Source: Eubacteriales bacterium
Lineage (GTDB): Bacteria; Bacillota; Clostridia; Oscillospirales; CAG-382
Direction of reading: 5' to 3'
Assembly (NCBI GenBank): GCA_045657425.1
Contig: JAZOTA010000004.1
Coordinates: 13,908-77,907, forward strand
Length of the DNA stretch: 64,000 bases
The notes under the pieces are model-generated. The model was given only the letters and a program-made list of their open reading frames with translations, had not been told where the DNA came from and ran no database searches. Below are positions 36,531 through 52,247 of this stretch, piece by piece (positions within the stretch are counted from its first letter, which is position 1; every line of letters begins with the position of its first letter). The translations under genes were made by a program, and so were the position numbers.

Positions 36531-37195
36531 ATGAAATTTAAATATCTTTTGTTTGATCTCGACGGGACGTTGATAGATACCACCGAAGGTGTTTTAAAGT
36601 CTGCCCAAAATGCACTGAAAAGCTTTGGAATTTTCGTTGAAACCGAAAATCTAATGAACTTTTTTGGTCCGCCTTTACAGTATTCGTTTTCAACACTTTA
36701 CGGTCTGTCCGATGCAGATACCAATAAGGCAGTCGAAATTTATAACGAACGCTATAATAAATTCGGTATAGCGAATCACATATTTTCCCCGAGATCAAAG
36801 CACTTCTTCCTAAATTGAAAGAAGCCGGTTATATTCTCGGTGTTGCTACCTCAAAGCCGCAAGACCAAGCAATCGAAATGTTAAATTATCATTCCGTCTA
36901 CGATTATTTTGACTTTATATCCGGCGCAAGTGCAGACGGTAGCATTAGCAAAAAGGACGAGGTTATTAAGGAAGCATTAAGACACTTCAGAATCACCGAT
37001 GAGCTTGATAAGGTTCTTATGATCGGCGATATGAAATTTGATATTATAGGCGCAAAAAAATGCGGTATAGATTCTTTTGGAATCTATACCGGTACTGCTT
37101 GCACAGATGAGCTTGAAAACGAAGGCGCCAACTATGTAGCGTATAGTTTCGACGAGCTTGAAAACAAATTACTCGTTGATTTTTTGAACAATTAA
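36531..37195 (+). pseudogene. HAD-superfamily phosphatase (PGP/PpaX-like) interrupted by a -1 frameshift in a T4C4 run
   Basis: ORF 36531-36818 carries motif I (FDLDGTLIDT). The frame starting at 36761 carries the rest (GVATSK, GDMKFDI). The two frames join naturally around 36780-36791 (atattttcccc): ...NHIF|PEIKALLPKLKEAGY. Confidence 0.7.
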
Positions 37196-37698: not shown

Positions 37699-37777
37699 CT
37701 CTGAATTTTTATAGTTGAATTATAACACACGCACAAACGCAAGTCAATCGCATATTTTTCGGAAAGGGGGAGAATGT

Positions 37778-38605
37778 ATGCATCGATTAATCAAAGGAAT
37801 CAAGTACTTTGGACGCAAAATTTCTGCAAGCAGAATCAGCGCATATTCGGCACAAACCGCCTACTTTATGTTCCTCTCTCTCATTCCGCTTATAATGCTA
37901 CTGCTATCGTTATTGCAATTACTCGGTGATACAGGCGAAACGGTCACACAAACGATCAGCGAGGTTATGCCCGGTGTATTGGGCGAATTCATTAACGACT
38001 TTATAAACGAAATAATGTCCGACGGAAGGTTAACACTCACGATCGTCTCTGCAGCGTTGTTACTATGGTCGGCATCGCGCGGAGTCTTCTCGATAATCGG
38101 CGGTTTAAACTCGGTTTACGAGATAAAAGAAACAAGAAAATATCTTTGGGTGCGTTTTCTTTCAATAGTTTATACTCTGGCTTTTATAGTCATTGTTTGC
38201 GGTGTTCTGCTTATTATTGTCTTCGGTGACACGCTTATTAATCTTTCGAACTCTTTTTTCCCAAACCTAAAGGGATTGGTTTATATCATCGCTTCCCTTC
38301 GCTTCATTTTGGGATTCATAATATTGGTTTTGTTTTTCTCAATCATATACAAGAGTATGCCTTGCAAAAAGATGAAATTTGTCGACCAAATTCCGGGCGC
38401 CGTTATTTCGGGTGCAGGTTGGGTTTCGTTTTCGATTCTCTTCTCTTTCTACGTTGACAATTTCAGCAACTACGCTAACGTTTACGGCTCGTTGACCGCC
38501 ATTATCGTTTTAATGCTTTGGCTGTATACCTGTATGTATATAATGTTCATCGGTGCAGAAATCAACTGCATTCTGTCTTCAAAGGTCAACAATCAAAAGA
38601 AATAA
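37778..38605 (+). CDS. YihY/BrkB-family membrane protein
   Basis: SAYSAQTAYFMFLSLIPLIMLL and the ending YGSLTAIIVLMLWLYTCMYIMFIGAEIN are YihY hallmarks. Start at MHRLIKG (37778) after GGGGGAG. Confidence 0.75.
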   Translation: MHRLIKGIKYFGRKISASRISAYSAQTAYFMFLSLIPLIMLLLSLLQLLGDTGETVTQTISEVMPGVLGEFINDFINEIMSDGRLTLTIVSAALLLWSASRGVFSIIGGLNSVYEIKETRKYLWVRFLSIVYTLAFIVIVCGVLLIIVFGDTLINLSNSFFPNLKGLVYIIASLRFILGFIILVLFFSIIYKSMPCKKMKFVDQIPGAVISGAGWVSFSILFSFYVDNFSNYANVYGSLTAIIVLMLWLYTCMYIMFIGAEINCILSSKVNNQKK

Positions 38606-38656: not shown

Positions 38657-40069
38657 ATGATTTTTGCAGATTTGTTTTTTATGTTTGCATTCTTACCTTT
38701 ATGCTTTTTGTTCTACTTTATGTTCAAAAGCTTAAAGGCAAAAAACTGGGTACTTATCGTATTCTCGCTGGTCTTTTATGCGTGCGGTGAACCGATTAAG
38801 ATTTTGTTGTTTGTCAGCAGTGCGGCAATTAACTATTTCCTCGCATTATGGATGGACAAGGCGCGCGGAACCAAATATTGCAAAATGGCAATGTCACTTT
38901 CGCTCATCTACAACATAGGTATGCTTGGTTTATTTAAATACACCGATTTCATTATCGGAAACATAAACGGCATTTTCGGCTCTTCTATTCCGCTTCTCAA
39001 GCTCGCACTGCCTCTTGGCATTAGCTTCTACACATTCCAGATTATGTCCTATATGATCGACGTATATTGGGAAAAAGTTCCGGTTCAGAAGCATTTCAAC
39101 AAATTATTGTTATACATTTCCCTCTTCCCGCAATTGGTTGCAGGCCCGATCGTGCGTTACCAAACAATTGCCGATGAAATCGATAACCGTACAACCACTT
39201 TAAAAGACGTTATCGAAGGCGGCTTGCGTATCATCGTCGGTCTTTCCAAAAAGGTTCTTTTGGCTAACAATTTGAACCTGATTGTTGCAAAGTGCTTTGG
39301 CGAAAACGTTTCCGAGGCGTCAGTTGCCGCAACTTGGTTTGGCGTTATCGCTTATTCGATGCAGGTTTATTTCGACTTCTCCGGTTATTCGGATATGGCA
39401 ATCGGTATCGGCAGAATATTCGGCTTCCACTTTGACGAAAACTTCAAGCACCCCTTTATGTGCCGTTCTATTTCGGAATTCTGGCAAAGATGGCATATTT
39501 CGCTTGGCAGTTTCTTCCGCGACTACCTCTTGTATCTACCGATTTTTGGCAAAAGACGTGCAGTTTTGTCGTTGTTCCTCGTTTGGTTTACCACAGGTCT
39601 TTGGCACGGCGCAAGCTGGAACTATGTAATTTGGGGACTTTATTTCGGTGTATTCATCTTCATCGAAACGTTAATAGGCAAAAAGCGTCTTAAAAATGCG
39701 CCTACTGCATTAATGCACATATACAACAAGCTCGTAATACTTATCGGCTTCGGTATCTTCAAGTTTGAAAACTCAAGCGACCTTATCAACTTCTTCAAAA
39801 ATCTCGTAGGCGCTAACGGCAACATTCTGTATAACGATGACTTTTTCACGGTAGTTACTACCAACGTCTTTATATTCTCAATCGCGCTTATCGCTTGCTT
39901 CCCAATCATCCCTTATCTCAGAAAACGACTTGAAAACTCAAGCCCAATTGTTTATTCGATTGGCTTGATAACCGCAACTATTTTGGCGATTCTCCTCTTG
40001 TTTATCAACACAAGCGTTCTTGTCAAAACCTTCAGCAGTAACAATCCTTTCCTTTATTGGAACTTTTAG
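38657..40069 (+). CDS. MBOAT-family membrane O-acyltransferase (DltB/AlgI/PatA-like) ending in a DltX-like aromatic hexapeptide
   Basis: 470-aa polytopic protein. Catalytic-His context SEFWQRWHISLGSFFRDYLLY. The extreme C-terminus is PFLYWNF. Confidence 0.9.
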   Translation: MIFADLFFMFAFLPLCFLFYFMFKSLKAKNWVLIVFSLVFYACGEPIKILLFVSSAAINYFLALWMDKARGTKYCKMAMSLSLIYNIGMLGLFKYTDFIIGNINGIFGSSIPLLKLALPLGISFYTFQIMSYMIDVYWEKVPVQKHFNKLLLYISLFPQLVAGPIVRYQTIADEIDNRTTTLKDVIEGGLRIIVGLSKKVLLANNLNLIVAKCFGENVSEASVAATWFGVIAYSMQVYFDFSGYSDMAIGIGRIFGFHFDENFKHPFMCRSISEFWQRWHISLGSFFRDYLLYLPIFGKRRAVLSLFLVWFTTGLWHGASWNYVIWGLYFGVFIFIETLIGKKRLKNAPTALMHIYNKLVILIGFGIFKFENSSDLINFFKNLVGANGNILYNDDFFTVVTTNVFIFSIALIACFPIIPYLRKRLENSSPIVYSIGLITATILAILLLFINTSVLVKTFSSNNPFLYWNF

Positions 40070-40079
40070 GTGATAAAAT

Positions 40080-41501
40080 ATGAAAAATTTCACTATCAAA
40101 TTATGCGCTATTCTTTTAGCGCTGACACTTTTGTTCATGTTCGTCTTTTGCGTATTTCTTCCGCGCGAAACCGAATCCAACTACACAACATTAAAGGAAT
40201 GGCCCGAATTTTCCTTTGAAGATCTGTTTTCGGGCAAGTATTTTAAAGGCATCAGCGACTACTTTTCCGATACTATTTACGGTCGCGATACATTTGTAGA
40301 CTTTGAAACAAAGATCAACGGTCTTTACGGCTTGGAGGAAGAAGAAAAAATCATTACACTCAAGCCCGATGAATCCGTTCCCGACCAGGAACAGTCAGTT
40401 TCAGATGAAACATCTACCGAAACAGAAAGCTCGCAGATAGAAAGCAGTGATAGCTCCGATTATTCCTCGGAAGCACCCGAAAGCAGCTTTACCCCCGACG
40501 AATCCGAACCCGAAATCGAATCACAACCCGAAGAGTCGAAGCCCGAACAAGGCGGCGGACTTGCTGAAATTTCCGGTTCAATCCTTATTATCGGCAACCG
40601 TGCTATGGAAATTTACTACGGAAATCAAAATGGCGCGCTCCGTTACGCAAATATTCTGAACAATTTTGCCGAAAAGCTTGACCCCTCGGTTAACGTTTAC
40701 TCTATGGTAATTCCCAAATCAAGCGCTTATTATATCGGTCAAGCATCTCAACAAAAGTATCAAAAGCTTGCCGGCTGTAACAAGAACGATATCGATACCA
40801 TTTCCAACACACTTTCTGACAAGGTAATCGACGTAAACATTTACGACATTCTCGGTCGCCACGCAAATGAAGAGATCTACGCACGCACCGACCACCACTG
40901 GACCGCTTTGGGCGCATATTACGCATCCAGCGTTTTCGCTCAAAAAGCAGGTGTTGCGTTTGACGATATCTCAAACTTTGAAGAGGTAAGAAGACCCGGT
41001 TACCTCGGAACCTATTACTACGTATTTTCATCCAAAGACAACAACGCTGTACTTCAAAACAACCCGGAAGATTTTCTCTCGTTTATTCCCGATACCAAAT
41101 ATACCGTCGAATATTACTCGTCGAGCGGTTTTTCAAACGGCGCAATCAATGAAAGCAAACTTAGTGCACACAACGGCTTTTTCTTTGAAATTTCCGATAA
41201 AAAGATCGGCAGCTGGTATTCAACCTTCATTTTGGGTGATACCTATTGTGTTAAAGCAAAATCCGAAGAATGCAAAAACGGCAGAAAGCTTCTTATCATC
41301 AAGGATAGCTACGGCAACGCGCTCGCACCGTTTATGATTGAAGGATTCGAAGAAGTTTATGTTGTTGACGGCAGAAAATACGCCAAGAACTTAAAAGAAA
41401 CCATTAATGAATTCGGCATTACCGACGTCTTGTTTGCAGAAGTTACCTTCTCTGCAGTGGGCAAGGATTATTTAAACGCACTTGAGGAGATTTGTAAATA
41501 A
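40080..41501 (+). CDS. DHHW-family (AlgJ/AlgX/DltD-like SGNH) extracytoplasmic acyltransferase, N-terminal TM anchor
   Basis: TM LCAILLALTLLFMFVFCVFL, then a Ser/Glu/Pro-rich acidic linker. Motifs: YARTDHHWTALGAYYAS and IIKDSYGNALAPF. Confidence 0.8.
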   Translation: MKNFTIKLCAILLALTLLFMFVFCVFLPRETESNYTTLKEWPEFSFEDLFSGKYFKGISDYFSDTIYGRDTFVDFETKINGLYGLEEEEKIITLKPDESVPDQEQSVSDETSTETESSQIESSDSSDYSSEAPESSFTPDESEPEIESQPEESKPEQGGGLAEISGSILIIGNRAMEIYYGNQNGALRYANILNNFAEKLDPSVNVYSMVIPKSSAYYIGQASQQKYQKLAGCNKNDIDTISNTLSDKVIDVNIYDILGRHANEEIYARTDHHWTALGAYYASSVFAQKAGVAFDDISNFEEVRRPGYLGTYYYVFSSKDNNAVLQNNPEDFLSFIPDTKYTVEYYSSSGFSNGAINESKLSAHNGFFFEISDKKIGSWYSTFILGDTYCVKAKSEECKNGRKLLIIKDSYGNALAPFMIEGFEEVYVVDGRKYAKNLKETINEFGITDVLFAEVTFSAVGKDYLNALEEICK

Positions 41502-41503
41502 CC

Positions 41504-42928
41504 ATGAAAAAATTAGCACTTTTGCTTCTTCCTATTTTACTCTGTATAATTCTTATCGCTTGTGATACTGGGACCGAAAACGTTTCGAGTATTTCCGATA
41601 TTTCCGAAGCCGAAAGCTCAAACGGAAACGAATCAGACGTTTCGATAACCGAAACCTCGGAAGATAGCACAGGCACCGATAATAACAGTTCCGCAACCGA
41701 AGAGAGCTCCGAACCGACCGAAAGCAGCAATGTCGAACCTGCTACTATTCAAAAAGAGCTTGATGTTACTGTAACTGTTCACGGTACCACCGCCCTTGGA
41801 AATGCAGGCCTTTCGGTTAAATCCGGTTATTCAAAGAACCAAAAAATTACTGTTGAAGGTGAAAAAGACCTCATCGACTCTTTGGATGCTTCTAAAATCA
41901 GTGCCGAGATTGATGTATCCGGTACATCTACTATGGGAACCTTTGATTTTTTGATTATCTACAAAGTACCCGAAAACGTTAAAATCGTAAGCACCTCTGC
42001 AGAATATCTTTCTTTGGAAATTGTTAAAAAGCCCGAAGAAACCGTTACTCCGCCCAGCAATACTGCGTATATCACCAACGGCATAATAATCGCCGGTAAC
42101 AGAGGTATGGAGCAGTTCGGCGGCACTGTAGCAAGTGGCGAAAAGACTGCGCAAAAGCTTAATGAATTCAAAAAAGCAGTCGGCGCAGATATAAACGTTT
42201 ATATTATGGCTTGCCCTTCGGCAGGAGCCTTTTATGCACCCGAAAAATACCCTAACAACATCAAAAATCACATTAACTGCTTTAACGGCATCAAAGACAA
42301 TCTTGTAGACGTTAAATTTGTTGATACTTTAACTGCATTGGGCGCTCACACGGACGAATACATCTATCTCCGCACCGACTTCCACTGGAGCGGTTTGGGC
42401 GCTTATTATGCCGCAAAGGAACTTGCGAAGGTTGCAGGTACTCCTTTTGACGACATCTCTACTTATACCGAACACAGTGTTGACGGACTTAAAGGCAGTC
42501 TTGTTAGTTATGCACCCGTTCTGGCTAATTATCCCGACACCTTATATTGGTACGTTCCCAGCCGTCAGCATACAGTTACGTACTACAGTGCAACAAACTT
42601 TAAGAATCCCATTACCGGAAGAACCTTGTTTTCAAACAACAACGGATACTCAAAGTTCATCTACGGCGACTCGTATACCACTCACATTCAGTCTGACGTG
42701 AACAACGGAAGAAAACTCCTTATTTTCAAGGATAGCTACGGAAATGCGCTCGCACCTTACGTACTTTCCTCTTTTGAAGAAGTTTATATAGCAGATTACC
42801 GAAAATTCACTCTCAACGCACTCGAGTTCATTGAGGAACACGACATTACAGACGTTTGCTTTGCAATGTCCGCTTTTGCGACATCCGGCAGCAAACGCGA
42901 TTATATTACAAAACTTCTGAAATATTAA
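41504..42928 (+). CDS. Second DHHW-family acyltransferase: lipoprotein with an inserted YbbR-like domain (motif variant DFHW)
   Basis: Lipobox IILIAC and an acidic S/E linker. YbbR-like segment ITVEGEKDLIDSLDASKISAEIDVSG. Motifs: YLRTDFHWSGLGAYYAA and IFKDSYGNALAPY. Confidence 0.75.
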   Translation: MKKLALLLLPILLCIILIACDTGTENVSSISDISEAESSNGNESDVSITETSEDSTGTDNNSSATEESSEPTESSNVEPATIQKELDVTVTVHGTTALGNAGLSVKSGYSKNQKITVEGEKDLIDSLDASKISAEIDVSGTSTMGTFDFLIIYKVPENVKIVSTSAEYLSLEIVKKPEETVTPPSNTAYITNGIIIAGNRGMEQFGGTVASGEKTAQKLNEFKKAVGADINVYIMACPSAGAFYAPEKYPNNIKNHINCFNGIKDNLVDVKFVDTLTALGAHTDEYIYLRTDFHWSGLGAYYAAKELAKVAGTPFDDISTYTEHSVDGLKGSLVSYAPVLANYPDTLYWYVPSRQHTVTYYSATNFKNPITGRTLFSNNNGYSKFIYGDSYTTHIQSDVNNGRKLLIFKDSYGNALAPYVLSSFEEVYIADYRKFTLNALEFIEEHDITDVCFAMSAFATSGSKRDYITKLLKY

Positions 42929-42938
42929 GGAGAATATT

Positions 42939-44726
42939 ATGCCTGTAACTGCATATCCCTTTGATATTGATGCGCTTACCGACCATCGCAAAAGAACAAG
43001 ACGTGAGCTTATAAACGATGGCAGCAAACGCATAAAAAAGAAAATTGCCGTTTTAGGCGGATCCACAACCAACGATTTTATCAAGACCTTGGAGGTGTTT
43101 TTGCTTTCCGAAGGTATTGAGCCTGAATTTTACGAATCCGAATATAACCGTTTCTGGCAGGATGCGATGTTCGAAAATCCCGAGCTTTCGGAGTTTGCTC
43201 CGGACATCATCTATGTTCACACAAGCTATAGAAATATTGCTTCGTTTTTACCCGAAACGACCGATTCTGCCGAAGAAATTGAGTCCAAGATTAACGAGCG
43301 ATATTCCTATTACGAAAAAATGTGGAACCGCTTGGCAAGCGTATATTCCTGCCCGATAATTCAAAACAATTTCGAGCTTCCGCCTTACCGCCTTTTCGGT
43401 AACCGCGATTGCTATGATATTCACGGTGCAGTCAACTTTATAACCCGTTTGAATTTGCGTTTTGCTGAATATGCTCAGCAAAACCAGGGCTTTTACATTT
43501 GCGATATCAATTATATTGCTTCCTGCTTCGGTCTTGACAAATGGTTTGATGACCAAGCGTGGTATATGTATAAATATGCCTGCTCGCTTGATGCAGTTCC
43601 TTACGTCACAAAGAACCTTTCAAATATTATCAAATCTATCTTTGGCAAAAATAAAAAGGTTTTAGCGCTCGACCTCGACAACACCCTTTGGGGCGGCGTC
43701 GTTGGCGATGACGGAGTTGAAGGAATTGAAATCGGCGAAGAAACTGCCACCTCGGAATGTTACAAAGCATTTCAGGAATACGTTAAAAAACAAAAAAGCA
43801 TCGGTATTATGTTGACTGTTGCTTCGAAAAACGACCACGAAAACGCAATCGCAGGCCTTAATCACCCCGAGGGTGTGCTTCGCCCCGATGACTTTATCGT
43901 CATTAAAGCAAATTGGGAAACCAAGGACAGAAACCTTGTTGCAACAGCGAGCGAAATGGACCTCGGCATCGATTCCTTCGTCTTTGCGGACGATAACCCC
44001 ACCGAGCGCGCGCTTGTTGAACGCAGCATTAAAGGCATCGCTATTCCTGTATTCGACGTGCCCGCCGATTATATTCGCACCATCGACAGAAACGGATATT
44101 TCGAGGTTACCAACTTTTCCGCAGACGACTTGAAGCGTAACGATATGTATAAGGCAAACGTCAAGCGCGCTGAGCTTTCAACAGAGTTTGCGGACTACAC
44201 CGAATATCTGTTGAGCTTGGATATGAGAGGCGAAATCAAACCGTTTTCTCCCGTTTTTATGCAACGCATTACCCAATTGACCAACAAATCCAACCAGTTT
44301 AACCTTACAACTAAACGTTACACTCAACCCGAAATCGAATCGGTCGCAAACGACGGCAAGCACATTACCCTTTATGGTAAGCTTTCCGACACCTTTGGTG
44401 ATAACGGCGTTGTTTCGGTTGTTATTGGTCAAATCAAGGACAATATTTGCGATATAGACCTTTGGCTTATGAGCTGCCGTGTTCTTAAAAAGAATATGGA
44501 ATATGCAATGCTTGATACTCTTGTAAAAGAGTGCAAAGATAGGTCTATTGACACGATAATAGGTCACTACTACCCCACCGCAAAGAACGGAATGGTCAAA
44601 AACCTCTTTAATGATTTCGGTTTCGAAAAAACATTTGAAGGCGAAGACGGCACGACCGAATGGAAGCTTTCGCTTACCGATTATCAAAACAAAAACAACG
44701 TAATTAAAGTTAATCTGGAGGAATAA
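42939..44726 (+). CDS. FkbH-like HAD-IIIC family protein (predicted acyl/glyceryl loader for the adjacent ACP)
   Basis: HAD motif I in KVLALDLDNTLWGGVVGDDGVEGIEIG. The C-terminal GNAT-like part carries the FkbH-type cysteine motif DLWLMSCRVLKKNME. Confidence 0.8.
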   Translation: MPVTAYPFDIDALTDHRKRTRRELINDGSKRIKKKIAVLGGSTTNDFIKTLEVFLLSEGIEPEFYESEYNRFWQDAMFENPELSEFAPDIIYVHTSYRNIASFLPETTDSAEEIESKINERYSYYEKMWNRLASVYSCPIIQNNFELPPYRLFGNRDCYDIHGAVNFITRLNLRFAEYAQQNQGFYICDINYIASCFGLDKWFDDQAWYMYKYACSLDAVPYVTKNLSNIIKSIFGKNKKVLALDLDNTLWGGVVGDDGVEGIEIGEETATSECYKAFQEYVKKQKSIGIMLTVASKNDHENAIAGLNHPEGVLRPDDFIVIKANWETKDRNLVATASEMDLGIDSFVFADDNPTERALVERSIKGIAIPVFDVPADYIRTIDRNGYFEVTNFSADDLKRNDMYKANVKRAELSTEFADYTEYLLSLDMRGEIKPFSPVFMQRITQLTNKSNQFNLTTKRYTQPEIESVANDGKHITLYGKLSDTFGDNGVVSVVIGQIKDNICDIDLWLMSCRVLKKNMEYAMLDTLVKECKDRSIDTIIGHYYPTAKNGMVKNLFNDFGFEKTFEGEDGTTEWKLSLTDYQNKNNVIKVNLEE

Positions 44727-44729
44727 ATT

Positions 44730-44966
44730 ATGGCACAAAATATTAACGAAAGACTTAACGAAGTATTCCAAAACGTTTTTGATGACGAAGACATCACCGT
44801 TGATCGCGAAACTACCGCTGACGATATTGAAGATTGGGACAGTCTTGAGCACATTCGTCTTATCGCGGCTGTTGAACGTGAATTCGGTATGAAATTCACC
44901 ATGAAAGAAGTCAGCGCAATGAAAAACGTTGGCGAAATGATGGACATCATCGCTGAAAGAGCATAA
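44730..44966 (+). CDS. Acyl carrier protein (discrete, DltC-like role predicted)
   Basis: 78 aa and acidic, with phosphopantetheine-attachment context DIEDWDSLEHIRLIAAVEREFG. Starts 3 nt after the FkbH-like stop. Confidence 0.85.
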   Translation: MAQNINERLNEVFQNVFDDEDITVDRETTADDIEDWDSLEHIRLIAAVEREFGMKFTMKEVSAMKNVGEMMDIIAERA

Positions 44967-44988
44967 CCAAAACCGATAAACAATAACT

Positions 44989-45026
44989 AAAGAGGAATTG
45001 TTCATATACGAGCAATTCCTCTTTTT
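44989..45026 (+). terminator. Rho-independent terminator closing the MBOAT-ACP operon
   Basis: aaagaggaattg-(12 nt loop)-caattcctcttt followed by tt. Confidence 0.8.
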
Positions 45027-45128
45027 AAATAACAGCTGTGATATGCTTTATAAAATTCCCGATGAATGCAAAGAAGAAAACACAAGAGCAAAGACGCGAA
45101 ATTCGTAGCTTAAAATAATATTTACAAA

Positions 45129-45164
45129 AATCCCGTGCATACCAATTGTGATATGCACGGGATT
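45129..45164 (-). terminator. Terminator of typA
   Basis: Minus strand reads aatcccgtgcat-(loop)-atgcacgggatt followed by tttgtaaa. Confidence 0.7.
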
Positions 45165-45177
45165 AATTGTTATTACA

Positions 45178-47022
45178 CTATTTTTCTGCAGCCGCTTTCT
45201 TTGCTCTGCTTTCCGCTTTCATTCTTAATTCTTTATTAAGAATACGCTTGCGGATACGGATCGATTGAGGCGTTACCTCGATAAGCTCGTCATCTGCAAT
45301 AAATTCAATCGCTTCTTCAAGCGACATAATGATAGGCGGAGTGAGAATAAGCTTTTCATCGGCACCTGCGGAACGAATTGCGGTAAGCTGCTTTTTCTTG
45401 CAGGGATTAATCGCCATATCTTCACCCTTGGGGTTAATACCAACGACCATACCTTCATATACATTCATACCGGGGCCTACGAACAAATTACCGCGGTCTT
45501 GCGAGTTATAGCAACCGTAAGAGGTTGTTTCGCCATCTTCACTTGCAATAAGCGAACCGGTAAAGCGAATCTGAATATCGCCTTTAAAGGGCTTGTATCC
45601 TTCAAAAATGGAGTTAAGAATACCTTCGCCGCGAGTGGCGGACATAAACATATTTCTGTAACCGATAAGGCAACGCGCGGGAATCGAATATTCGATCTTC
45701 ATACGAGTGCCGTTACCGTTAGGGTTCATTTGAAGAAGATCGCCTTTACGTCTGCTCAGCTCTTCAACAACAGTACCAACATAATCATTGGGAACGTCAG
45801 CAGTAACAAGCTCAAAGGGCTCACACTTAACGCCGTCAATCTCTTTAAAGAGAACGCGCGGAGTCGAACAGCAAAGCTCAAAACCTTCACGGCGCATATT
45901 TTCAACAAGAATCGAAAGGTGCATTTCGCCACGACCTGCAACGTTAAAGCAATCGGTAGTGTCACCTTCGTTTACACGAAGTGAAACGTCCTTCAAAAGC
46001 TCCTTGAATAATCTGTCGCGTAATTGACGCGAGGTTACAAACTTACCTTCTCTACCTGCAAACGGAGAATCATTAACCGAGAAGGTCATTTCCATTGTAG
46101 GTTCGCCAACCTTAACAAATTCCAAAGGTTCGGGACAAGTAACGGACGTAATGGTATCACCAATAGTAATATCTTCAGCACCCGAGAAGCACACGATGTC
46201 GCCCATATTAGCGGTTTGAACGGGTACACGGTTAAGACCGTCGATCTGATAAAGCGAAACAATTTTCGTTTTCTTAGGTGTAGCACCGGAGTGATAGTTG
46301 GTAATAAATACCTCCTGTCCCTGCTTGATAGAACCGCGTTCGATTCTACCGATACCTATACGACCTACATATTCATTATAGTCGATTGAAGAAACGAGCA
46401 ATTGCAATTCACCGTCAGGATCACCTTCGGGTGCAGGAATATGAGAAAGAATGGTTTCGAAAAGGGGTTGGAGATCCTTACCCGCTTCATAGGGAGAAAG
46501 CGAAGCAGTGCCGGCTCTTCCGGAACAGAACAGCGTGGGGCTTTCGAGCTGTTCATCGCTTGCGTCGAGGTCAAAAAGAAGCTCGAGAACTTCATCCATA
46601 ACCTCTTCGATTCTTGCATCGGCGCGGTCGATTTTATTGATAACAACGATAACCTTATGGTTAAGCTCGAGCGCTCTTTGCAAAACGAATCTGGTTTGAG
46701 GCATAGGTCCTTCAGCCGCATCGACCAAAAGGATAACACCGTTTACCATTTTAAGAATACGCTCAACCTCGCCTCCGAAATCGGCGTGTCCCGGGGTGTC
46801 GATAACGTTAATTTTAACGTCTTTATAGTGGATGGCAGTGTTTTTTGCGAGAATGGTAATACCGCGCTCGCGCTCGAGAGCGTTATTATCCATAACGCGA
46901 TCCTCGGTAACCTGATTTTCGCGGAATACGCCGCCTTGCTTAAGCATTTCGTCAACAAGAGTAGTTTTGCCGTGGTCAACGTGAGCGATAATTGCGATAT
47001 TTCTTAAATCTTCTCTAACCAT
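45178..47022 (-). CDS. typA: Translational GTPase TypA/BipA
   Basis: [36 protein letters not shown], and 614 aa with the BipA-specific C-terminal domain. Confidence 0.95.
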
Positions 47023-49640: not shown

Positions 49641-49669
49641 TTGACATATTCATCGAAAAGTAGTATAAT
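49641..49669 (+). promoter_or_regulatory. Sigma-A promoter of the 845-aa lipoprotein gene
   Basis: TTGACA (49641-49646), a 17-nt spacer, then TATAAT (49664-49669). The track's ORF start at 49641 is actually the -35 box. Confidence 0.6.
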
Positions 49670-49712
49670 GCGCTTATGTGTAAATATCTGTTTTTTAGGA
49701 GGAACGCCTACT

Positions 49713-52247
49713 ATGAAAAAAGGCATCTTATGTATTCTTCTGTCAATTCTTATGCTTGTTCCGATGTTCGCATCCTGTTCAAGCGAAGTAGTTATCGAAG
49801 ATATTGAAGCCAAAGTTTATACTCTCTACACTATCAAAGATAAAGAAACGACACCTGAAGCCATCAGACAGGTTGAACTTGCGCTTAACCGCATTTTGTT
49901 CCACCGTTTGGGCGTCATCCTCAAGCTTGTTATGGTTGATGAGGAGGAATATGATCAGCTCATTACCGACAAGTATGCTGAAATGGAAGAATATCAGCTT
50001 GCAAAGAAAAACAAGAACAACAAGGATGAATCCTCTAAAGCCGATAGTTCCGACGAAGAGGTTTCTGTCGACGTTCTTACCGGTGATGATATTCTCGACA
50101 TCCTCGAAGAGGGCGGACAAATTCCCCTCGAAGAGCCCAGACTTGATATTTTCCTTGTAAGAGGATACGACAAGTATTACGACCTTGCTACAAACGGAAA
50201 GCTTGTTTCTCTCGACGAAAAGCTTAACAACGAAGGTAAATCGCTCAAGTCTTCTATTCACTCTACTTTGTTCACAGCTGCAAAGGTTGGTTTGAAGACA
50301 TACGGCGTTCCCGTTAACAACGCAATCGGCGAATACACTTATCTCGTATATGATGCTGAACTTTTGGCTCAGCACAATATCGACCCTAACACTCTTACTA
50401 CGTTGGAAGACCTTCGCGATTATCTCGAAATCGTTGCTAAAAACAATCCCGACGTAGTTCCTTTGAAGAACATTAAGGAATCGACCGCGTTCAACTTCCT
50501 TAGCACTCCCGGCTTCCCTGCACTCGTTCAATTGACCGACCTTGGAACCCGTCGTGTAATCAACGCATATAAAGATTCTCAATTCAAAGATTATTATGCA
50601 ATGATCGCAAGATATCAGGCGCTTGGCTATATTTCTGATGATTTTGCATCTGCTGCAGAAACCGATGATGTTCCCAGATACGCAGTTCGTTTTGAAAGCG
50701 GTACTATCGACTCCATCACCAAGAATCTCCAGAAGGAGTATGGTAAGGAACAGAAGTTTGAATTTACCGAATTTTCTCCTCCTATCGCTACAAATGAAAA
50801 TACAATTGATAATATTTTCTGCGTATCCGAATTTGTATCTTCTACCGACGAACTTACCGACGTAATCGAAATCATGGAAGCTATCAACACCGATGCTCAA
50901 CTTATGAACATCCTCACCTACGGTGTTGAAAACGTACACTACCAACTCGATGATGACGGCTTTGTTGTTAGAAAAGAAGACAGCGTTCAAATCACTAATC
51001 CCGAAAACCCCGATGAAAAGATCGTAGTTAAGAATGTTTATATTGTAGACCCCAACCACGTTGGTAACTGCTTTATCACCCACATTCTTAAGGATACCGA
51101 ACACGATACAACAAACGCAAACCTTTGGATCGACGCTATTAAGCAAAACCAAGATGCAATCGTTTCACCCTCGCTTGGTTTCACCTCCAACCCCAAGAAA
51201 TTCTCTTACAAGGTTACAGTTGAAATTGACGATCCCAAGAACCCCGGACAAAAGATCCAGCAGGAAGATACCGTTGATATTTACGAACCCGATTACATCG
51301 AGGTTATCAACGAAGTTATAGCTAAGCACTACCCCGCCCTCCTTTCCGGTACCGCTGTAGAGATTAATTATGAAGAGATCTACACAAAAGCAGAAGCGGA
51401 AATCGTCGCAGATTTCGTTGACAGAGTTGACGAACAATTCGAAGAAAACGTTCTTAAACCTATGTTCGCAGAAATGATGCGCGAAGAAGTAACAAAAAAT
51501 CAAAGCAAACAGATTCGCGAAGAAGCTGAAGCGGTTGTTAGAGAAGACCTTCACGACGACGTTAGAAAGAAGCTTAAGAATAAGCTCACCTCTAAGTTGA
51601 AGGCAGAAAATCCTGAAGCAAGCAGCTCTGATATTTCCAAGATGGTAAATGAACTGCTTACCGAAGAGTATATTAATGAAAACTTCGCTTCCTACTACAG
51701 CGAAGAAGAAGTTCAAGACAAAATTGAAAGCACATTCATAAACTATCTTGATTCCGCAATCGATGATGCAATCGACGAAATCGAAGATACCGATGAATAT
51801 GCAAAAGCATTTGAAAATCTCCAAAACTCTGAAGAATATAAGAATCAACTCAACCTTATGTTGACTTATGACGCTCCCAACAAGATTCTCGCACGTGTAG
51901 ACGAATATATTGCTGAGGAAATTGCAGTATATACCGATAACATCATTGCAGAAATCGAAACCGCTATCGAAGCAGCTGTTAACAAATTTGTTGAGGAAAA
52001 TTCTGAAATTCTTAATCTTACCGCAGAACAGATTTATTTAGAAATCGGTTACTACGAAGAAGAAAAGGTTGAAACCGAAGGCGAAGAAGCTGATGCAGCA
52101 ACAGAAGAAAGCGCAGCTGAAGGTGAAGAAGGCGAAGAAGAGAAGAAGTTAGTACCTAAGTACGAAACTTGGTTCGACTTTGTGTTCACCGAAAAGATCC
52201 AAAACACCTACTATCAAATCTTCGGTGACCCCGACAAAGTAGCATAA
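49713..52247 (+). CDS. Lipoprotein: solute-binding-like domain followed by an approximately 300-aa highly acidic helical region and a short conserved C-terminal tail
   Basis: Start MKKGILCILLSILMLVPMFASC (lipobox) after AGGAGG. SBP-like N-terminal two-thirds. The C-terminal third is Glu/Asp-rich with heptad-like spacing and ends WFDFVFTEKIQNTYYQIFG. Confidence 0.5.
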   Translation: MKKGILCILLSILMLVPMFASCSSEVVIEDIEAKVYTLYTIKDKETTPEAIRQVELALNRILFHRLGVILKLVMVDEEEYDQLITDKYAEMEEYQLAKKNKNNKDESSKADSSDEEVSVDVLTGDDILDILEEGGQIPLEEPRLDIFLVRGYDKYYDLATNGKLVSLDEKLNNEGKSLKSSIHSTLFTAAKVGLKTYGVPVNNAIGEYTYLVYDAELLAQHNIDPNTLTTLEDLRDYLEIVAKNNPDVVPLKNIKESTAFNFLSTPGFPALVQLTDLGTRRVINAYKDSQFKDYYAMIARYQALGYISDDFASAAETDDVPRYAVRFESGTIDSITKNLQKEYGKEQKFEFTEFSPPIATNENTIDNIFCVSEFVSSTDELTDVIEIMEAINTDAQLMNILTYGVENVHYQLDDDGFVVRKEDSVQITNPENPDEKIVVKNVYIVDPNHVGNCFITHILKDTEHDTTNANLWIDAIKQNQDAIVSPSLGFTSNPKKFSYKVTVEIDDPKNPGQKIQQEDTVDIYEPDYIEVINEVIAKHYPALLSGTAVEINYEEIYTKAEAEIVADFVDRVDEQFEENVLKPMFAEMMREEVTKNQSKQIREEAEAVVREDLHDDVRKKLKNKLTSKLKAENPEASSSDISKMVNELLTEEYINENFASYYSEEEVQDKIESTFINYLDSAIDDAIDEIEDTDEYAKAFENLQNSEEYKNQLNLMLTYDAPNKILARVDEYIAEEIAVYTDNIIAEIETAIEAAVNKFVEENSEILNLTAEQIYLEIGYYEEEKVETEGEEADAATEESAAEGEEGEEEKKLVPKYETWFDFVFTEKIQNTYYQIFGDPDKVA

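Follow-up and report, generated by a model that had tools for sequence, protein, structure and literature searches.

A predicted envelope O-acylation operon that joins an MBOAT/DHHW machinery to an FkbH-type loader and an acyl carrier protein in Clostridia

Background

Acyl groups on wall polymers (D-alanyl, acetyl) control how far a cell resists lysozyme and cationic peptides, and also the activity of autolysins, the adsorption of phages and recognition by the host. The subject of this work is a five-gene operon found in a 64,000-nt stretch of DNA (hereafter the window) from Eubacteriales bacterium, assembly GCA_045657425.1, contig JAZOTA010000004.1, positions 13,908 to 77,907 of the forward strand. 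The operon encodes an MBOAT-family acyltransferase, two DHHW proteins (DHHW1 and DHHW2), an FkbH-like protein (the loader) and an acyl carrier protein (ACP). It is best read as a trans-membrane O-acylation machine of the MBOAT/SGNH class, the donor of which is a dedicated acyl-ACP instead of acyl-CoA.

In the Dlt pathway a cytoplasmic loader charges a small phosphopantetheinylated carrier, the MBOAT passes the acyl group to the tyrosine of an FXYXXF motif and an SGNH-superfamily protein delivers it to a wall polymer (PMC12148441), and the operon described here resembles Dlt in this layout. The order of transfers, from cytoplasmic thioester to FXYXXF tyrosine to SGNH serine to polymer, was set out by Anderson, Schultz et al. 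(J Biol Chem 2025; PMC12148441). According to the same work the FXYXXF shuttle resides on the DltX microprotein in Dlt and is fused to the end of the MBOAT in PatA, AlgI and PatA1, and no MBOAT/SGNH pathway but Dlt has a carrier protein (PMC12148441). The PatA1/PatB1 system, responsible for O-acetylation of the secondary cell-wall polysaccharide in B. cereus/anthracis, is similar to the operon in having a fused-FXYXXF MBOAT and an SGNH-type transferase, and CcsH/CcsI also constitutes a clostridial MBOAT/DHHW pair. However, PatA/PatB, PatA1/PatB1, AlgIJFX, WssHI and CcsHI have no carrier or loader and acetyl-CoA is used (PatA) or presumed, whereas the operon encodes both an ACP and a loader. 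The acyl-shuttle motif is said to have been defined by Schultz et al. in 2023. Dlt-like carrier-protein-dependent acylation of the envelope is also known outside teichoic acids, namely in the AlmE-AlmF-AlmG system for lipid A glycine in Vibrio cholerae, which comprises a DltA-like adenylase and a cytoplasmic enzyme of the lipid A acyltransferase family, and no MBOAT, SGNH partner or FkbH.

All characterised FkbH-domain enzymes known to us use 1,3-bisphosphoglycerate, and ZmaN was reportedly characterised by Chan et al. in 2006 as an enzyme converting 1,3-bisphosphoglycerate to glyceryl-ACP. Gellan carries an L-glyceryl ester; a literature link between this ester and the cassette was looked for and none was found. 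A search of full-text literature, with most subscription journals outside its coverage, revealed no coupling of FkbH or of any ACP with an MBOAT/SGNH envelope pathway, and the first-pass annotation, which knew of no characterised envelope modification made in this way, agrees with this outcome. FkbH domains have been described as loading glycerate (PMC10143770).

Organization of the operon

The five open reading frames (ORFs) occupy positions 38657-44966 on the + strand and are followed by a hairpin:

38657-40069, + strand: MBOAT gene, 470 aa (PF03062, E 1.2e-23)
40080-41501, + strand: DHHW1 gene, 473 aa (PF14286, E 8.5e-62)
41504-42928, + strand: DHHW2 gene, 474 aa (PF14286, E 1.8e-28)
42939-44726, + strand: FkbH-like loader gene, 595 aa (FkbH domain model TIGR01686, 257.9 bits against a cut-off of 146.65)
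44730-44966, + strand: ACP gene, 78 aa (PP-binding family PF00550, 22.4 bits against a cut-off of 20.8)
44989-45026, + strand: intrinsic terminator hairpin between the ACP gene and the convergent typA/bipA, closing the operon

The gaps between the genes are 10, 2, 10 and 3 nt in the ORF list of the window, in exact agreement with the first-pass annotation, and each of the five start codons is preceded by a GGAGG-like ribosome-binding site. The hairpin consists of a perfect 15-bp stem followed by a U run, with a folding energy of -20.7 kcal/mol (z = -7.4 in comparison to shuffled sequences, and none of 200 shuffles folded equally well). It was not listed by a simple terminator scan and was recovered by folding, which upheld the single strong terminator predicted earlier for this position. 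The profile searches assigned all five proteins to the families originally named (MBOAT, DHHW twice, FkbH/HAD-IIIC and PP-binding), and the motifs quoted for each of them are present in the translations.

No match to an AMP-binding/adenylation family was found by the profile search among the five operon proteins, and the same search detected in the operon no other acyltransferase able to use acyl-ACP. Thus, in contrast to Dlt, the adenylation enzyme DltA is absent and the operon has an FkbH/HAD-IIIC/GNAT loader instead.

The loader and its carrier protein

The loader is composed of three domains:

aa 35-232: FkbH_N domain (PF21211, E 1.3e-17)
about aa 239-395: HAD-IIIC phosphatase domain with D245/D247, S296-K297-N298, K329 and D351-D352
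about aa 430-595: GNAT-fold acyltransferase domain with S512-C513-R514 (nt 44469-44483)

The HAD-SF-IIIC model TIGR01681 was matched with 60.9 bits (cut-off 35.75), the LDLDNTLWGG and LMSCRVL motifs are present, and the protein matched the PDB entry 3SLR (BF1531 of Bacteroides fragilis) with E 2.3e-51. Together with the FkbH_N and TIGR01686 matches, these features bear out the assignment of the 595-aa product to the FkbH-like HAD-IIIC proteins, and by its sequence the loader is a bona fide FkbH-domain protein. ZmaN, encoded by the zwittermicin cluster on a B. thuringiensis plasmid, was used as the aligned reference. The D245-x-D247, S296-K297-N298, K329, D351-D352 and S512-C513-R514 residues are shared with ZmaN and invariant in an alignment covering S. 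meliloti, C. perfringens and Clostridia sequences, and the HAD residues and S512-C513-R514 were still invariant when the alignment comprised 50 sequences from Clostridia and Proteobacteria.

An AlphaFold (AF2) model of the loader built on the 50-sequence alignment reached pLDDT 88.4 and pTM 0.74. When it was searched with Foldseek, residues 1 to about 395 matched 3SLR with a TM-score of 0.91, and the C-terminal domain matched GNAT acetyltransferases (RimI, Ard1) with E of about 1e-7 and target-normalised TM-scores of 0.68-0.75 for the closest ones. In the model Cys513 comes straight after the central strand, at the place where the pantetheine arm is bound in GNATs. Since the phosphatase site is intact, the donor would be expected to have a phosphoester as well as an acyl-phosphate, a description that among common metabolites fits 1,3-bisphosphoglycerate.

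The loader is similar to the FkbH/OzmB/ZmaN glyceryl-ACP synthases in its FkbH domain (HAD-IIIC plus a Cys-bearing C-terminal acyltransferase domain), in the invariant residues and in the adjacent dedicated ACP. Those of verified length (359 aa in ZmaN, 367 aa in BafAIV) are, however, short forms of about 360 aa without FkbH_N, whereas the loader is a long form. The synthases are also accompanied by FkbK/FkbI-type dehydrogenases and by polyketide synthase (PKS) or non-ribosomal peptide synthetase (NRPS) genes; in the PKS-type loci inspected for contrast a short FkbH was found together with megasynthases and with homologues of 3-hydroxyacyl- and acyl-CoA dehydrogenases. In contrast, PKS/NRPS genes and FkbK/FkbI homologues are absent from the operon and its flanks, and the product is expected to serve the MBOAT. 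The same absence separates the operon from the methoxymalonyl- and hydroxymalonyl-ACP pathways. Since the cassette has no FkbK/FkbI-type dehydrogenase, the glyceryl unit would not be oxidised to hydroxymalonyl and the cargo of the operon is expected to stay glyceryl. A reading of the locus as a natural-product cluster was considered and excluded because of the lack of PKS/NRPS genes and of FkbK/FkbI homologues.

The FkbH family is large: at 50 % identity it comprised 13,773 cluster representatives at E<=1e-3, 10,283 at E<=1e-10 and 5,063 at E<=1e-30. Nearly all of the best 150 representatives are long forms that align over the full length.

The start codon of the ACP gene lies 3 nt past the stop codon of the loader gene. 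The small protein was correctly recognized as a 78-aa carrier with DWDSLEHI, its PP-binding match being above the cut-off. Equivalog models for ACPs gave weak matches, all under cut-off, and generic ACP models were matched rather than the DltC model. The PDB match was 2LML ('putative acyl carrier protein', E 4.8e-17). The predicted site of phosphopantetheine attachment is Ser38 in DWDSL (nt 44832-44846), and a (D/Q)WDSL signature is common to the ACPs of all examined MBOAT-linked cassettes from other phyla.

The membrane-bound acyltransferase

The MBOAT contains the FWQRWHISLGSFFRDY motif, and its conserved histidines, His280 in RWHISL (nt 39488-39505) and His317 in LWHGAS (nt 39599-39616), are invariant in an alignment of 16 cassette MBOATs. 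The C-terminus of the protein reads ...NNPFLYWNF, and its last six residues (FLYWNF, nt 40049-40066, + strand) fit FXYXXF. F465 and Y467 are invariant among the 16 proteins and F470 nearly so, and in the cassettes from Sinorhizobium, Tistrella, Sphingobium, Halocynthiibacter and the gammaproteobacterial MAG the MBOATs likewise terminate in FxYxxF. By analogy with the known shuttle, Tyr467 of FLYWNF is the predicted covalent acyl acceptor.

DltB is the only MBOAT relative with a solved structure (6BUG/8JEM, E about 7e-23, the alignment being limited to aa 119-344), a further likeness to Dlt. However, the DltB equivalog model TIGR04091 scored 148.8 bits, far under its 375-bit cut-off. Because the FLYWNF shuttle motif is fused at the C-terminus, the protein is assigned to the PatA/AlgI type and not to the DltB type. 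The gaps of 2-10 nt in the operon leave no space for a gene of a DltX-like microprotein, and with the shuttle motif fused to the MBOAT a separate DltX would therefore not be needed, in contrast to Dlt. The first-pass annotation had called the protein an AlgI/DltB-type MBOAT with a catalytic His; the family, the histidine and the AlgI part of this description held, while the DltB part had to be dropped.

The two DHHW proteins

Both partner proteins carry the circularly permuted SGNH domain known as DHHW and share the KDSYGNALAP motif. DHHW1 is built of an N-terminal membrane anchor, an acidic Ser/Glu-rich linker and the DHHW domain with the TDHHW (aa 270-274), KDSYGN(ALAP) and DGRKY motifs. Its predicted triad, based on correspondence with PatB1, is Asp271/His273/Ser410, with Arg432 of D430-G-R432 as the oxyanion residue, and these catalytic residues are invariant in the DHHW alignment. 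The PDB matches of DHHW1 were 4NZK (EUBSIR_00411 of Eubacterium siraeum, E 3.9e-60) and B. cereus PatB1 (5V8D, E 1.6e-8).

DHHW2 begins with a lipoprotein-type signal with the LIAC lipobox (aa 17-20), followed by an acidic Ser/Glu-rich linker, a weak YbbR-like segment and the DHHW domain. It also matched PF16822 (AlgX, E 2.4e-8) and PF07949 (YbbR, E 1.2e-5). Its motifs are TDFHW (aa 291-295), KDSYGN(ALAP) with Ser411, and DYRKF. Phe293 (TDFHW, nt 42374-42388) thus stands in the position of the first His of DHHW. This variant is limited to the close relatives of the window (L001-L003, L005, L006, L009, L017, L032 and L038; loci are given by L numbers), and distant orthologues have DHHW.

In PatB1 of B. 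cereus, the founding DHHW enzyme, the triad is Ser337/His202/Asp200 within D200-H201-H202-W, and Arg359 held by Asp357 forms the oxyanion hole; the H201A substitution abolished the transferase activity with about half of the esterase activity kept (PMC9487903). The Ser/His/Asp triad and the oxyanion Arg are common to PatB1 and both paralogues of the window, so that, with their export signals, the two proteins are predicted to be catalytically equipped. The earlier description of two paralogous extracytoplasmic DHHW/AlgJ-like acyltransferases, based on TDHHW/TDFHW and KDSYGNALAP, was confirmed by the PF14286 matches of both. The Phe variant of DHHW2 hints at a division of roles between the paralogues. 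The pairing of an anchored DHHW1 with a second paralogue that bears an extra domain recalls AlgJ and AlgX of the AlgI-J-F-X system. As compared to Dlt, the SGNH partners are permuted and duplicated and give no DltD match.

Conservation and gene orders of related cassettes

With the FkbH protein as a query 38 loci were recovered from related Clostridia. The nearest ones come from metagenome-assembled genomes (MAGs) of ruminant-gut Clostridia/Oscillospiraceae, with identity up to 97 %. The ACP gene directly follows FkbH in 31 of 37 loci, and an MBOAT gene was present at a distance of 3 kb or less in 18 of the 22 loci with sufficient flank. The exact order MBOAT-DHHW-DHHW-FkbH-ACP is kept down to approximately 60 % FkbH identity. 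At 56-58 % FkbH identity there are cassettes with only one DHHW gene, which is longer; that of a cultured isolate, Acutalibacter intestini M00204, is among them. Other Clostridia have the order FkbH-ACP-MBOAT-partner, sometimes with an inserted MaoC-type dehydratase or glyoxalase/VOC protein, and some of these cassettes are embedded in a glycosyltransferase/Wzx locus.

The cassette is not Clostridia-specific. A proteobacterial version of four genes, which code for an MBOAT (about 522 aa), a partner with no Pfam match (about 390 aa), an ACP (about 81 aa) and a long FkbH (about 630 aa), is present in the first three organisms below, and rearranged forms in the last two:

Sinorhizobium meliloti pSymB: MBOAT-partner-ACP-FkbH, beside a glycosyltransferase family 2 (GT2) gene and capsule genes (equivalent to HB773_17245-17260 of CP050512.1)
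Sphingobium aquiterrae: MBOAT-partner-ACP-FkbH
Halocynthiibacter: MBOAT-partner-ACP-FkbH, beside GT2/Glyphos_transf, LicD and cytidylyltransferase genes
Tistrella mobilis pTM1: rearranged, divergent cassette with a methyltransferase gene
gammaproteobacterial MAG: rearranged cassette with two methyltransferase genes and a gene for a hotdog-fold protein, beside GT1/GT2/ABC genes

The predicted conservation of the MBOAT/DHHW/FkbH/ACP neighbourhood was therefore found in Clostridia, and the combination recurs in other orders in Alpha- and Gammaproteobacteria. With five gene orders spread over three bacterial classes, adjacency by chance is unlikely, which argues that the ACP and the loader serve the MBOAT.

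At their N-terminus the partner proteins outside the DHHW group have a transmembrane (TM) helix, followed by the block hhhGxS and, C-terminally, by DxxH. This corresponds to the canonical SGNH/DltD order, so that at the motif level they look SGNH/DltD-like. The proteobacterial (about 390 aa) and clostridial (about 350-440 aa) partners gave no profile-profile match to DHHW, and neither kind had a Pfam or PDB sequence match. Compared with each other, they gave only a weak profile match around the G-x-S block, with 4 % probability. The S. meliloti protein of about 409 aa encoded between MBOAT and ACP (L042:2386-3615; CP050512.1, QND28147.1) is annotated as 'TonB-dependent receptor' and has no Pfam match. 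Its TM helix, FLVGGS and DPGH give it the look of an inner-membrane-anchored SGNH/DltD-like protein, and the receptor annotation is probably wrong. In a Lachnospiraceae locus (L036:12560-21118) three MBOAT genes lie downstream of one FkbH-ACP pair, and a Pfam-less partner with TM helix, GxS and DxxH follows at least two of them; it is possible that this is a multi-acceptor array fed by one donor module.

In the variant cassettes genes of potential tailoring enzymes (MaoC dehydratase, glyoxalase/VOC, S-adenosylmethionine-dependent methyltransferases and a hotdog-fold protein) lie between the loader and the acyltransferase:

L026: 12015-12434
L036: 12134-12550
L049: 5139-6074
L054: 10729-11133
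L051: 3062-3727, 6408-7334 and 7644-7997

The presence of these genes suggests lineage-specific editing of the ACP-bound unit, e.g. to O-methylglyceryl or a dehydrated product. The VOC protein is possibly an epimerase. Dehydratase, methyltransferase and VOC enzymes would fit a hydroxyacyl-ACP intermediate.

FkbH-ACP pairs outside the MBOAT cassettes

The FkbH-ACP pair is a portable donor module. Without an MBOAT it was found in nonulosonic-acid (NeuB/PseB) loci and on a C. perfringens plasmid. BF1531 (3SLR) is encoded in a capsule locus of the B. fragilis type (L053), after UpxZ and a ferredoxin/FrhB/hexapeptide-acyltransferase fusion and before an ACP gene and a Wzx-like MatE gene. In a Prevotella-like contig (L054) an FkbH-VOC-ACP array lies beside genes for two AT3 acyltransferases, GtrA, UbiA and a sulfatase-family protein. 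In C. jejuni the flagellar glycosylation locus includes a gene with an FkbH domain, Cj1302 (PMC7099621). The pairs from glycan loci (BF1531, Cj1302, nonulosonic-acid loci) resemble the one studied here in the long-form FkbH, the adjacent ACP and the location in surface-glycan loci. They differ in having hexapeptide-repeat or AT3 acyltransferases or sugar-nucleotide enzymes, and no MBOAT/SGNH exporter. The module thus appears to occur with three acyltransferase classes, and its presence in glycan loci suggests a general glycan acyl-donor module.

Solitary FkbH genes were found in Lachnospiraceae/Clostridium MAGs (L021, L024, L025, L027, L028 and L033). As judged by eye from the N-terminal sequences, a GrcA-like 80-aa ORF is a neighbour in L024, L025 and L028, and L025 and L028 also have a 695-aa ORF resembling pyruvate formate-lyase.

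Proposed pathway

The operon was originally described as holding all parts of a trans-membrane carrier-protein-dependent acylation machine, and both the profile matches and the conserved combination of genes support this. It was also described as a Dlt-like operon with FkbH in place of the adenylase. The carrier protein, the FkbH loader and the lack of an adenylase stand, but the operon corresponds rather to a PatA/PatB-type machine with an acquired carrier-protein donor. Strictly, it is a member of neither Dlt nor PatA1/PatB1; it brings known modules together in a way from which a new donor and a new type of ester are predicted.

In the proposed loading step, modelled on the FkbH/OzmB/ZmaN family, Cys513 of the GNAT-like domain would take the acyl-phosphate of 1,3-bisphosphoglycerate, the HAD-IIIC domain would strip the 3-phosphate, and D-glyceryl (2,3-dihydroxypropanoyl) would be handed over to the phosphopantetheine on Ser38 of the ACP. 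An ATP-dependent adenylase would not be needed since the glycolytic acyl-phosphate provides the activation energy. The cargo is therefore predicted to be a hydroxyacyl group, not an amino acid as in Dlt. By analogy with DltC-DltB and PatA, glyceryl-S-ACP would then dock at the cytoplasmic face of the MBOAT, and the acyl group would pass, assisted by His317/His280, through the tunnel onto Tyr467 of FLYWNF at the outer face. On the PatB1 pattern, the DHHW serine (Ser410 of DHHW1 and/or Ser411 of DHHW2) would attack the acyl-Tyr, and DHHW1 and DHHW2 may act as a relay, like AlgJ and AlgX. The final transfer would be to a hydroxyl of a wall glycopolymer, i.e. secondary cell-wall polysaccharide, a teichoic-acid-like polymer, peptidoglycan or exopolysaccharide. 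The cascade thioester, Tyr ester, Ser ester, polymer alcohol would be kept, with the ATP-driven adenylation of Dlt replaced by glycolytic substrate-level activation.

The FkbH/ACP pair very probably feeds the MBOAT. What is established here comprises the gene content, the catalytic motifs, the loader fold as modelled and, across phyla, a conserved linkage of the four functions; the full chain with glyceryl as cargo and a glycopolymer as acceptor, both of them deduced, is favoured with modest confidence.

Several observations weigh against this proposal. The core of the loader is only about 25-27 % identical to ZmaN, and no assay of long-form (FkbH_N-bearing) FkbH proteins was found in the literature. 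In Subdoligranulum the FkbH-ACP pair has no MBOAT within 7 kb, and in six loci with FkbH homologues 55-60 % identical neither an ACP nor an MBOAT gene lies within about 10 kb; an MBOAT is hence not an obligatory companion of the loader. The Phe of DHHW2 sits where PatB1 has H201, needed for transferase activity. The tailoring enzymes of the variant cassettes show that the final acyl group varies by lineage, and no polymer-synthesis genes were found flanking the operon in the window, which leaves no clue to the acceptor. Finally, PatA-type MBOATs use acetyl-CoA (PMC12148441), so the MBOAT of the window might too.

Alternative explanations

The alternative that survives best keeps the machine and changes its cargo: lactyl, pyruvoyl, O-methylglyceryl, hydroxymalonyl or another small hydroxyacyl group, or a precursor other than 1,3-bisphosphoglycerate. 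The long-form FkbH family, with its 5,063 cluster representatives at E<=1e-30, is large and uncharacterised, the identity of the loader to the characterised enzymes is low, and the MaoC, VOC, methyltransferase or hotdog genes of related cassettes point to an ACP-bound unit that is edited in some lineages. The operon itself, however, has no tailoring genes and all FkbH catalytic residues are kept in the loader, including the phosphatase nucleophile. FkbH domains have been described as loading glycerate (PMC10143770), and the characterised enzymes known to us all use 1,3-bisphosphoglycerate. A different cargo is considered rather unlikely.

It could also be argued that two separate systems happen to be neighbours, namely an O-acetyltransferase of the PatA1/PatB1 type using acetyl-CoA and an FkbH/ACP pair engaged in cytoplasmic acylation of a nucleotide sugar or lipid. 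PatA indeed uses acetyl-CoA, and among the known MBOAT/SGNH systems a carrier protein belongs to Dlt only (PMC12148441). MBOAT and DHHW pairs lacking FkbH/ACP are known (PatA1/PatB1, CcsH/CcsI), as are FkbH-ACP pairs without MBOAT in capsule and nonulosonic-acid loci with cytoplasmic acyltransferases. Against this stands the linkage of the four functions in at least five gene orders in Clostridia, Alphaproteobacteria and a gammaproteobacterial MAG, with the ACP gene directly next to that of the MBOAT in several cases. The operon genes of the window are 2-10 nt apart under one terminator, and the operon offers no other acyltransferase for the acyl-ACP. Accidental neighbourhood is accordingly judged quite unlikely.

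A non-glycan acceptor (membrane lipid, lipoprotein or secreted small molecule, in a lipid-remodelling or natural-product pathway) seems very improbable: MBOATs elsewhere do acylate lipids or natural products, e.g. in cyanobacterial aeruginosin clusters, also with an FkbH domain, and the flanks in the window lack polymer-synthesis genes, but the sole characterised DHHW member acylates secondary cell-wall polysaccharide, DHHW2 matches the domain of the alginate acetyltransferase AlgX, related cassettes adjoin glycosyltransferase, Wzx flippase, Glyphos_transf/LicD or capsule genes, and PKS/NRPS genes are absent nearby.

Surroundings of the operon

The neighbours of the operon are housekeeping genes: typA, murC and that of an ABC ATPase. 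No canonical sigma-70 promoter was found in the 51-nt spacer 5' of the MBOAT gene, and the operon may be co-transcribed with the upstream gene of the BrkB/YihY family (37715-38605). This gene was considered as a part of the system and rejected, being syntenic in close relatives and L019 only and absent from distant cassettes. An Rfam scan of the window gave nothing, and no riboswitch or leader was detected 5' of the operon.

A second, GC-richer hairpin (45128-45167, ATCCCGTGCATA...TATGCACGGGAT) is situated immediately past the 3' end of the convergent typA/bipA (45178-47022, minus strand), so that both transcription units end in a separate terminator, with about 100 nt between the two.

At 36531-37195 (+ strand) a gene of a HAD-family phosphatase is broken into two overlapping ORFs, 36531-36818 and 36815-37195, by a one-base frameshift at or near the TTTTCCCC run (about 36783-36790). 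Frame 0 ends with ...NHIFSPRSKHFFLN* and frame +2 goes on as ...HIFPEIKALLPKLKEAGYILGVATSK... The gene is either a pseudogene or the result of a homopolymer assembly error. An 868-aa ORF at 49641-52247 (+ strand) resembles a lipoprotein at its N-terminus, is very acidic and rich in Glu in its C-terminal part, and has no Pfam match at E<=0.01.

Implications

The chances are about evenly balanced that the operon is the founding example of a second class of MBOAT/SGNH pathways that depend on a carrier protein, a class widespread in Clostridia of the gut and in Proteobacteria of soil and sea. In such pathways the portable FkbH-ACP module would draw on 1,3-bisphosphoglycerate for its acyl-phosphate, with no need for ATP or CoA, and surface glycopolymers would be esterified with glyceryl or with a tailored hydroxyacyl group. 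The same module would be used for cytoplasmic glycan acylation in Bacteroides capsule and nonulosonic-acid loci. The cassette is directly testable, as it is present on pSymB of the tractable Sinorhizobium meliloti and in the cultured Acutalibacter intestini.

If the proposed pathway is true, it would be an exception to the 2025 generalisation that only Dlt uses a carrier protein and the others acyl-CoA. It would provide a function for the orphan structures 3SLR and 4NZK, and probably 2LML, as well as for thousands of proteins annotated as 'HAD-IIIC family phosphatase'. It would also tie central glycolysis directly to envelope modification and would mean a new ester chemistry, assigned to no gene set so far, on the surfaces of bacteria that include the abundant gut Oscillospiraceae.

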